Shown here piece by piece: positions 53,120-53,345 of a DNA stretch of 53,345 nt (its first letter is position 1; each line of letters opens with the position of its first letter). Below the pieces are notes generated by a model. It was not told the origin of the DNA, did not search any database, and saw nothing but the letters and a program-made list of their open reading frames with translations. The stretch is from Escherichia coli (GTDB lineage Bacteria > Pseudomonadota > Gammaproteobacteria > Enterobacterales > Enterobacteriaceae). Location of the stretch: the NCBI RefSeq assembly GCF_003334405.1, contig NZ_QOWM01000021.1; one strand, written 5' to 3'. The position numbers were made by a program, and so were the translations under genes.

Positions 53120-53345
53120 TTCCTGTAAATTCGGTGTTGTCGGATGCACGACCCGTAGGCCGGATAAGGCGCTCGCGCCGCATCCGGCAATCAATGCCTG
53201 ATGCGACGCTGTCGCGTCTTATCAGGCCTACAACTATTGCCGACCTGTAGGCCGGATAAGGCACTTGTGCCGCATCCGGCAATCAATGCCTGATGCGACG
53301 CTGTCGCGTCTTATCAGGCCTACAACTATTGCCGACCTGTAGGCC
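53120..53345. repeat. Tandem BIME array (REP-containing unit of about 92 bp repeated at least twice, running off the window end)
   Basis: The unit beginning gtaggccggataaggc...ccgcatccggcaatcaatgcctgatgcgacgctgtcgcgtcttatcaggcctacaactattgccgacct starts at 53155, 53247 and 53339; copies differ only in a 7-nt patch (gctcgcg vs acttgtg). Confidence 0.75.

Follow-up and report, generated by a model that had tools for sequence, protein, structure and literature searches.

A strain-variable BIME-2 array in the rhaA-rhaD spacer of the Escherichia coli rhaBAD operon

REP and BIME clusters have been known for forty years. BIME-1 elements pair z1 and y REPs around a long conserved L linker that binds IHF and occur as single copies, whereas BIME-2 elements combine z2 and y REPs through short linkers, are arranged in tandem and vary in number between strains (Ton-Hoang et al., PMC3333891). 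The other BIME-2s of E. coli K-12 considered here, REP325 (yjdM-yjdN) and those at sucC-sucB and tldD-yhdP, share with the rhaA-rhaD array the alternation of y and z2 REPs, the short linkers, the tandem units, the variable unit number and cleavage by gyrase. Unlike them, the rhaA-rhaD array is intercistronic within an inducible catabolic operon rather than placed at the end of a transcription unit, and its tail-to-tail linker is 7 nt long, compared with 13 nt in REP325. The rhaA-rhaD BIME-2 is already known, its classification and its cleavage by gyrase both having been published: the locus is catalogued as 'BIMEs2 3543085-3543486, 401 bp, rhaA>-rhaD>' in Table DS3 of the Topo-Seq study of Sutormin et al. 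(PMC6379681). Four gyrase cleavage sites are listed there with ciprofloxacin (Cfx), two with rifampicin and ciprofloxacin (RifCfx), one with microcin B17 (Micro) and none with oxolinic acid (Oxo); gyrase cuts chiefly y-type REPs, and the gyrase signals at BIME-2s go up, not down, when transcription is blocked (PMC6379681). The proposal of a preliminary description, made from the sequence of the present array, that gyrase acts on it is thus borne out by published cleavage of the same BIME-2. What we add is descriptive and only mildly new, namely a 92-bp allelic ladder, variation within the K-12 lineage, an expansion in cryptic Escherichia and a convergent occupation of the rhaA-rhaD junction. 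Taken as one explanation, a BIME-2 in the rhaA-rhaD spacer that gains and loses units through homology and acts on the transcript as a stabiliser and decoupler has, by our estimate, a probability of roughly 0.8.

The window, that is, the whole stretch of 53,345 nucleotides analysed here, ends inside the array. TRF assigns its last 197 nt (53149-53345) to a tandem repeat of period 92 with 2.1 copies, 96 % matches, 0 % indels and a score of 366, and a gap-free repeat search agrees, pairing 53149-53240 with 53241-53332 at 96 % and beginning a third copy at 53333. Repetition of 92 nt at this identity greatly exceeds what chance would give. In each 92-bp unit a Y REP is combined with an oppositely oriented Z2 REP, with linkers of 7 and 15 nt, the order being a 34-nt palindrome, the linker AATCAAT, an inverted 36-nt palindrome and the linker AACTATTGCCGACCT (Table 1). 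The tandem REP units of ~92 bp that the preliminary description had set at 53155, 53247 and 53339 are real: these positions are the exact starts of three GTAGGCC... Y REPs, and re-alignment upheld both the tandem arrangement and the period, the starts lying exactly 92 nt apart. Its statement that the units differ only in a 7-nt patch stands in part. Phased from 53155, the two full units do differ in a single patch, at 53171, 53174 and 53176 only, but this patch atop the Y hairpin is 6 nt wide, and the TRF phase adds a fourth difference at 53154. Positions 53171 and 53176 pair with each other at the top of the first Y hairpin, the pair changing from G-C to A-T. A CRISPR-like array was also considered and rejected, as the entire 92-bp period repeats and unique spacers are absent.

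Table 1. Features of the rhaD-proximal end of the array and of rhaD, in window coordinates
Feature	Position	Strand	Basis or remark
rhaD CDS, rhamnulose-1-phosphate aldolase, 274 aa + stop	52287..53111	-	ORF list; RefSeq annotation of identical sequence; ATG 53111-53109 faces array
rhaD leader, 43 nt, last Y REP to ATG	53112..53154	-	sequence
Y-type REP no. 1	53155..53188	+	5' GTAG; loop-proximal stem GCGC/GCGC; 32/35 Y consensus vs 26/30 Z1, 29/37 Z2
Tail-to-tail linker AATCAAT, copy 1, 7 nt, short 's'-type	53189..53195	.	sequence
Z2-type REP no. 1	53196..53231	+	inverted vs Y, ends ...CTAC; 35/37 Z2 consensus
IS621 targets ATCAGGCCTAC	53221-53231 and 53313-53323	+	within Z2 no. 1 and no. 2
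Head-to-head linker AACTATTGCCGACCT, copy 1, 15 nt, short 'S'-type	53232..53246	.	sequence
Y-type REP no. 2	53247..53280	+	stem GCAC/GTGC, compensatory variant of Y no. 1; 31/35 Y consensus
Tail-to-tail linker AATCAAT, copy 2, 7 nt	53281..53287	.	sequence
Z2-type REP no. 2	53288..53323	+	identical to Z2 no. 1
Head-to-head linker, copy 2, 15 nt	53324..53338	.	sequence
Y-type REP no. 3, first 7 nt (GTAGGCC) before window end	53339..53345	+	remainder seen in identical genomes

The palindromes have the properties of REPs, being imperfect, between 30 and 40 nt long (34 nt for Y, 36 nt for Z2) and provided with a GTAG 5' of the stem foot and an internal mismatch; GTAG or CTAC stands at every REP head, and the mismatch is of the AAG/CGC type. 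Against the Y, Z1 and Z2 consensus sequences given in the methods of PMC11208160, the Y units match at 31-32 of 35 positions and the Z2 units at 35 of 37 positions of the Z2 consensus vs 28 of 30 of Z1, with a much lower alignment score for Z1 (16 vs 33). The REPs alternate in orientation, and their linkers, of 15 nt and 7 nt, correspond in arrangement and length to the short ones of BIME-2s (S head-to-head; s, l or r tail-to-tail). The units are, moreover, extragenic, tandem and variable in number between strains. By every sequence-level criterion the array is a BIME-2, and it has none of the features specific to BIME-1.

The preliminary description had also attributed IHF binding to the array; IHF sites, however, are a feature of the BIME-1 L linker (PMC3333891). 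An IHF-binding element of the BIME-1/RIP/RIB type would likewise consist of a y REP with an inverted partner in extragenic DNA, and each 7-nt linker with its flank indeed reads AATCAATGCCTGA, one mismatch off the IHF core consensus WATCAANNNNTTR. Yet an exact match to this core is absent from the array, a shuffled sequence contains 0.84 one-mismatch matches on average, and the four seen here are copies of one repeated sequence. The partner, in addition, is Z2 and not z1, the linkers of 7 and 15 nt replace a long L linker with its IHF site, and the units stand in tandem rather than as single copies (PMC3333891), while the Topo-Seq authors themselves place the rhaA-rhaD locus under BIME-2. We therefore regard an IHF-binding element of this type as highly improbable.

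A further claim of the preliminary description, that the array lies downstream of rhaD, is reversed by gene orientation. Because rhaD is encoded on the minus strand with its ATG facing the array, the array lies inside rhaBAD, downstream of rhaA and upstream of rhaD, and constitutes the rhaA-rhaD intercistronic spacer. Complete genomes show the minus-strand order rhaB, rhaA, array, rhaD, rhaM, and the array is entirely extragenic, with the rhaA stop 5 nt away on one side and the rhaD ATG 43 nt away on the other. Read on the mRNA strand, the spacer consists of TAA (the rhaA stop), ACACT, a Y REP, n repeats of the series 15-nt linker, inverted Z2, 7-nt linker and Y, and the 43-nt leader with its AGGA, followed by ATG. 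The leader, which is constant across all K-12-type alleles, contains this Shine-Dalgarno-like AGGA at 53121-53124 and, as detected in an inverted-repeat search, a degenerate half-REP at 53137-53147 that is complementary to a Y arm. The only long ORF crossing the array (331 aa; 52287-53282, minus strand, TTG start) is rhaD prolonged mechanically and in frame upstream over the REPs, the RefSeq start being the ATG. For annotation, the array thus belongs inside rhaBAD and not after the operon, and the spurious 331-aa ORF should not be called.

The same geometry bears on the reading of the array as the end of a transcription unit, where it would act downstream of rhaD as a terminator or 3'-end stabiliser. 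Transcription units frequently carry REPs at their 3' ends, which these can protect (PMC12306157), but here it is the start codon of rhaD, not its stop, that borders the array; the minus strand encodes all four of rhaB, rhaA, rhaD and rhaM, with rhaA across the array, and the 3' end of rhaD lies elsewhere, at 52287 by rhaM. A search for intrinsic terminators (a GC-rich hairpin followed by a T-run) found 0 sites on either strand of the full MG1655 spacer. The orientation of the genes suffices to refute the transcription-unit-end reading; attenuation by Rho between rhaA and rhaD is a distinct claim, which belongs to the explanation favoured here.

The length of the array was established from other genomes. 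Seven complete genomes match the final 500 nt of the window at 100 % identity, and every one of them carries a spacer of 358 bp with 3.4 units (4 Y + 3 Z2 = 7 REPs); going by these, the source of the window most likely has 3.4 units as well, with ~124 nt of spacer past the window end. The expectation that the array continues beyond 53345, where its copies were to be counted, is borne out in this way. MG1655 and the genome most similar to the window over the last 25 kb have a spacer of 450 bp with 4.4 units, an allele that differs from the window at two array positions, 53254 and 53328. The variation was sampled with a flank-only query (337 nt on the rhaD side and 304 nt on the rhaA side) by taking 60 evenly spaced records from the ranked list of the 5,363 genomes that it matched. 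The flank-to-flank spans of this systematic sample form an exact 92-bp ladder (682/774/866/958/1050/1142 bp), with 11 genomes at n = 0 (679-692 bp), 10 at n = 1 (774-784 bp), nine at n = 2 (866-876 bp), four at n = 3 (958-968 bp), 16 at n = 4 (1047-1060 bp) and two at n = 5 (1142 bp); seven further genomes have an alternative element (838-841 bp), and one locus is interrupted by an IS, so that a span is not applicable. One allele per class was inspected at the sequence level and contains 1, 3, 5, 7, 9 or 11 REPs, as the spans imply, and the unit number of all other genomes is that given by the span alone. In each allele so inspected, a Y REP starts 5 nt past the rhaA stop. The alternative element, present in 7 of the 59 sampled E. 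coli (about 12 %), is an unrelated dispersed repeat that lies beside a single Y and replaces most of the array. Copy number is therefore strain-variable, as had been anticipated, ranging from 0.4 to 5.4 units among 59 complete E. coli genomes and reaching at least 10.7 in cryptic Escherichia.

Several alleles are related by exact steps. Flanks 100 % identical to K-12 are seen with n = 0, 3 and 4, and within K-12 the laboratory derivatives C600 and OV2 have n = 3 and MG1655 has n = 4. Removal of one in-register 92 bp from the MG1655 allele yields exactly the n = 3 allele of the window type, with 18 equivalent breakpoints, and an in-register deletion of 276 or 368 bp yields exactly the single-Y allele (n = 0), the flanks being 100 % identical. 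Some copy-number calls could be assembly errors; random assembly collapse is disfavoured because sampled genomes of equal flank identity have equal span. An assembly artefact as the origin of the array was rejected on the same observation and on its presence in thousands of complete genomes. The locus thereby offers a clean natural allelic series, from 1 to >20 REPs in near-identical backgrounds that include K-12 laboratory lineages, which would be usable for testing REP number against operon expression, gyrase recruitment and targeting by IS621 or IS3-family elements.

In-register exact deletions of this kind are, at the level of the alleles compared, characteristic of slippage or of unequal exchange between units that are nearly identical, and it is by such homology-driven events that units would be won and lost. 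A contribution of TnpA_REP is also possible. This transposase requires GTAG and a stem mismatch and has been proposed as an amplifier of BIMEs (PMC3333891), and both recognition features occur in every unit. The array resembles REPIN/RAYT systems (RAYT being TnpA_REP in E. coli) in its inverted REP pairs with GTAG and stem mismatch, but differs in that a transposase gene is present neither inside nor adjoining it. In-register homology-driven exchange appears to account for the copy-number changes equally well.

Beyond E. coli, a RhaD scan with one genome per species provided 80 loci. The closest relative, Escherichia sp. MOD1-EC7003, carries a 92-bp unit of identical type, and its count of at least 10.7 copies is a lower bound because the contig starts inside the locus: its first bases are the terminus of an IS3-family element, joined directly to the loop of a Z2 unit. 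The MOD1-EC7003 assembly is apparently a short-read one. The rhaA-rhaD spacers of 76 further Enterobacteriaceae measure 115 nt at the median (range 15-466) and, when their contents are classified by regular expressions, hold genus-specific REP-like palindromes in 42 species, a CCCTCTCCC...GGGAGAGGG repeat in 20, both kinds in one and neither in 13. We take the CCCTCTCCC...GGGAGAGGG repeat to be BoxC-like. Only four spacers, of 15, 35, 43 and 47 nt, are essentially unstructured, and a predicted hairpin begins within 15 nt of the rhaA stop in 72 of the 76, despite the different repeat families. Tandem amplification is uncommon: a 49-bp unit containing a different REP occurs 8.2 times in Superficieibacter electus, a 48-bp unit twice in its congener and a 76-bp unit 2.2 times in one metagenome-assembled genome (MAG). 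The junction thus nearly always holds some palindromic repeat, none of which is conserved, a distribution that would be compatible with a site tolerant of repeat insertion and with convergent selection for a structured element alike.

These comparisons also bear on whether the array is simply selfish or neutral DNA, with REPs accumulating in a permissive spacer, changing by slippage or through TnpA_REP, and affecting the operon only incidentally. The wide range of unit numbers in E. coli and its sister clade (0.4-5.4 and at least 10.7), the replacement of most of the array by an unrelated repeat in 7 of 59 genomes, the unrelated repeats, or none, that other genera have in its place, and the insertion sequences that break the array without loss of the locus are all as such a reading would predict. 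It is less easily reconciled with the retention of one or more Y REPs, the first exactly 5 nt past the rhaA stop, in every E. coli allele inspected, with the cleavage of this BIME-2 by gyrase in vivo (PMC6379681), or with the predicted hairpins close to the stop in 72 of 76 other species, which, their families differing, would also be expected under selection for a structured element. The neutral reading retains substantial weight, and we hold it to be possible, if somewhat short of probable.

REP hairpins are described as barriers to exoribonucleases that stabilise upstream mRNA, BIMEs as able to attenuate transcription, and REPs placed up to 15 nt from a stop codon as stalling ribosomes and reducing translation, the last after Liang, Rudd & Deutscher 2015 (all as summarised in PMC12306157 and its references). 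In the light of this literature on the class, the proposal of the preliminary description that such arrays terminate or stabilise transcripts is plausible. The first Y REP, at 5 nt past the rhaA TAA, falls within this 15-nt distance for translational down-regulation. On the mRNA strand, the MG1655 spacer has a predicted folding energy of -254.7 kcal/mol, compared with -173 ± 6 for shuffles (z = -13.7). We suggest that the array is co-transcribed with rhaBAD and would fold into very stable stem-loops, which would block 3'-to-5' exonucleases and spare the upstream rhaB-rhaA segment, and which may in addition attenuate transcription entering rhaD, such that the output of RhaB and RhaA becomes uncoupled from that of RhaD. 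Lying 5 nt beyond the rhaA stop, the first REP may for this reason also delay the termination of RhaA translation. Of the effects that the array could have at the RNA level, that of a stabiliser and decoupler is, by analogy with other intercistronic REPs, the most likely. The intercistronic REP stabilisers of malE-malF and hisJ-hisQ (Newbury et al. 1987, Higgins et al. 1982, as cited in PMC12306157) likewise lie between cistrons, are co-transcribed and have very stable folds; stabilisation has been demonstrated for these two, whereas for rhaA-rhaD we infer it. A full-text literature search for rhaA/rhaD together with REP, the scope of which did not include Liang 2015, Liang & Deutscher 2016 and Moralejo 1993, returned no locus-specific transcript, half-life or protein data.

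The fold itself was compared across 21 distinct 92-nt units (95 % identical), which contain one compensatory pair, matched by 34 of 500 shuffles and therefore not significant. A model of local hairpins leaves 98.2 % of positions paired vs 92.9 % for a head-to-head Y:Z2 model, two models that covariation cannot separate. Given that 1 to >20 REPs, alternative repeats and four unstructured spacers are tolerated, no particular copy number, and perhaps no hairpin, is required. It is conceivable that the unit number constitutes a heritable, fast-mutating 'rheostat' of the RhaB/RhaA:RhaD ratio, working through stabilisation, attenuation and the stalling of ribosomes at the rhaA stop, an idea that we consider doubtful. 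If true, and coupled with selection for a structured decoupler, it would explain why unrelated palindromic families occupy most Enterobacteriaceae spacers, and it would likewise explain the separate 8-fold REP amplification in Superficieibacter and the REP 5 nt past the stop in every E. coli allele inspected. The rhaBAD promoter region finds wide use in expression systems (for example PMC2254391), and strain differences at the locus may interest engineers of native rhaBAD.

A different RNA-level role is raised by naRNA4, which corresponds to one Y-l-Z2 unit of another BIME-2, REP325, and is reported, for REP325 alone, to act as a discrete small RNA with HU in the condensation of the nucleoid (PMC4550694). 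The array could by analogy be a source of naRNA4-like nucleoid-associated small RNAs that bridge cruciform DNA with HU, and each of its Y-linker-Z2 units exceeds the gathering score of the Rfam family RF02564 (59.5 bits), with 77.0 bits at 53158-53228 and 76.6 bits at 53250-53320. These matches are, however, on the + strand, antisense to rhaBAD, and neither strand of the spacer or its immediate flanks has a predicted sigma-70-like promoter; the mRNA strand scores 49-56.5 bits, below the threshold, so that membership does not extend to the transcribed strand. The linker, moreover, is 7 nt long rather than the 13 nt of the naRNA4 model, 6 nt shorter, and RF02564 in effect detects any Y-Z2 pair, a third match in the window lying at 12810-12887. 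rhaBAD is transcribed only on rhamnose, which suits a housekeeping role in the nucleoid poorly. While similar to naRNA4 in sequence and structure above the gathering score, the array is, on these sequence comparisons, not classed as a naRNA4 gene, and we judge the production of such RNAs from it to be quite improbable.

The Z2 REPs have, finally, a further property at the level of DNA. Strain WP2-W18-ESBL-08 carries a copy of IS621 within the rhaA-rhaD spacer, with junctions that read, on the mRNA strand, ...GTTGTAG/ATACTGT...ATACAAG/GCCTGAT... (slashes marking the element ends). This corresponds to the CT core of ATCAGGCCTAC in the Z2 unit (ATCAGGC-CT-AC), the sequence that the IS621 bridge-RNA recombinase naturally targets (PMC11208160). 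The array thus serves as a target for REP-specific insertion sequences. The targets within Z2 no. 1 and no. 2 of the window (Table 1) are accompanied by two further IS621 targets with a variant at position 4 on the opposite strand of the array.

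A long array of the window's 92-bp BIME-2 unit is found in a cryptic-clade Escherichia (Escherichia sp. MOD1-EC7003), where at least 10.7 copies, comprising more than 20 REPs, make up an array approximately twice the length of the largest E. coli allele in the sample. The figure for this array is a lower bound, given that the assembly is apparently short-read and the contig is cut by an insertion sequence. The first 62–63 nt of this contig correspond to one end of an IS3-family element and adjoin the loop of a Z2 REP; of 5426 E. coli genomes, 2066 contain this sequence. The loops of REPs are targeted in the same manner by IS1397, which is a candidate identity for the element.

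A second insertion is observed within the rhaA-rhaD BIME-2 of E. coli strain WP2-W18-ESBL-08, where a copy of IS621, an IS110-family element with a bridge-RNA recombinase, is oriented opposite to the rha genes and separates rhaA from rhaD by ~1.5 kb. The insertion point corresponds exactly to the CT core of ATCAGGCCTAC, located inside a Z2 REP.

The same spacer can also be occupied by other repeats. In strain CT01 and six further sampled genomes, the alternative allele has only one Y REP, after which comes a palindromic, GC-rich, BoxC-like element of ~150 nt with the arms CCCTCTCCC and GGGAGAGGG. This element is a dispersed repeat, with a median of 3 places per genome and a full-length copy in 827 genomes, and elements of this kind take up the rhaA-rhaD spacer in 20 other Enterobacteriaceae species. 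The spacer of Superficieibacter electus harbors 8.2 copies of a 49-bp REP unit, and that of a congener 2.0 copies of a 48-bp unit; the REP unit is genus-specific and differs from that of E. coli, and the tandem amplification is independent. An Enterobacter-type REP pair is present in the spacer of a rhaA-rhaD locus from a record titled Chryseobacterium sp. 18061 (CACSKA010000012.1, L031), the RhaD of which is 91% identical to that of E. coli, and this record is probably a mislabelled or contaminated assembly.

Coordinates of features in the window and in comparison loci from other genomes
Feature	Sequence	Position	Strand	Basis
BIME-2 array	L012 (MOD1-EC7003)	64-1040
IS3-family element end	L012	1-63
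IS621	L010 (WP2-W18-ESBL-08, NZ_AP021933.1)	3301-4855
Alternative spacer allele	L008 (CT01)	601-841
49-bp REP array	L043 (S. electus)	2077-2481
48-bp REP array	L038 (congener)	2349-2442
331-aa ORF	window	52287-53282	-	mechanical, TTG start
Half-REP	window	53137-53147
Y arm	window	53180-53190
BIME-2-type unit	window	12810-12887	+	Rfam naRNA4 match, 75.2 bits
Spot 42	window	9166-9284		Rfam gathering-threshold match
CsrC	window	10313-10566		Rfam gathering-threshold match
ES222	window	17495-17602		Rfam gathering-threshold match
STnc370	window	19492-19560		Rfam gathering-threshold match
SECIS element	window	44021-44079	-	Rfam gathering-threshold match
yiiE segment absent	window	38453-38474
yiiE segment present	L092 (K-12-type)	10130-10545

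At the rhaD start, a mechanically called ORF extends the gene in frame through the array, spanning its first 1.5 units and encoding a REP-derived peptide; automatic annotation is likely to take spurious N-terminal extensions from it. The rhaD leader additionally contains a degenerate half-REP, TTGTCGGATGC, which shows 91% complementarity with the Y arm GCATCCGGCAA and may represent the relic of an older REP beside the ribosome-binding region.

Elsewhere in the window, a second BIME-2-type unit consists of a Y-Z2 pair, and the remaining Rfam matches look like ordinary known features of the region; judging by its position, the SECIS element should lie within the gene that K-12-type records annotate as the alpha subunit of formate dehydrogenase. 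Compared with K-12-type sequence, the window lacks a 438-bp segment bearing the small gene yiiE. In K-12 a direct repeat of 22 bp, TCTGGAAAACGCCTCGCAAAAA, bounds this segment. The window retains a single copy of the repeat, and the difference looks like a repeat-mediated deletion, or else an insertion in K-12.
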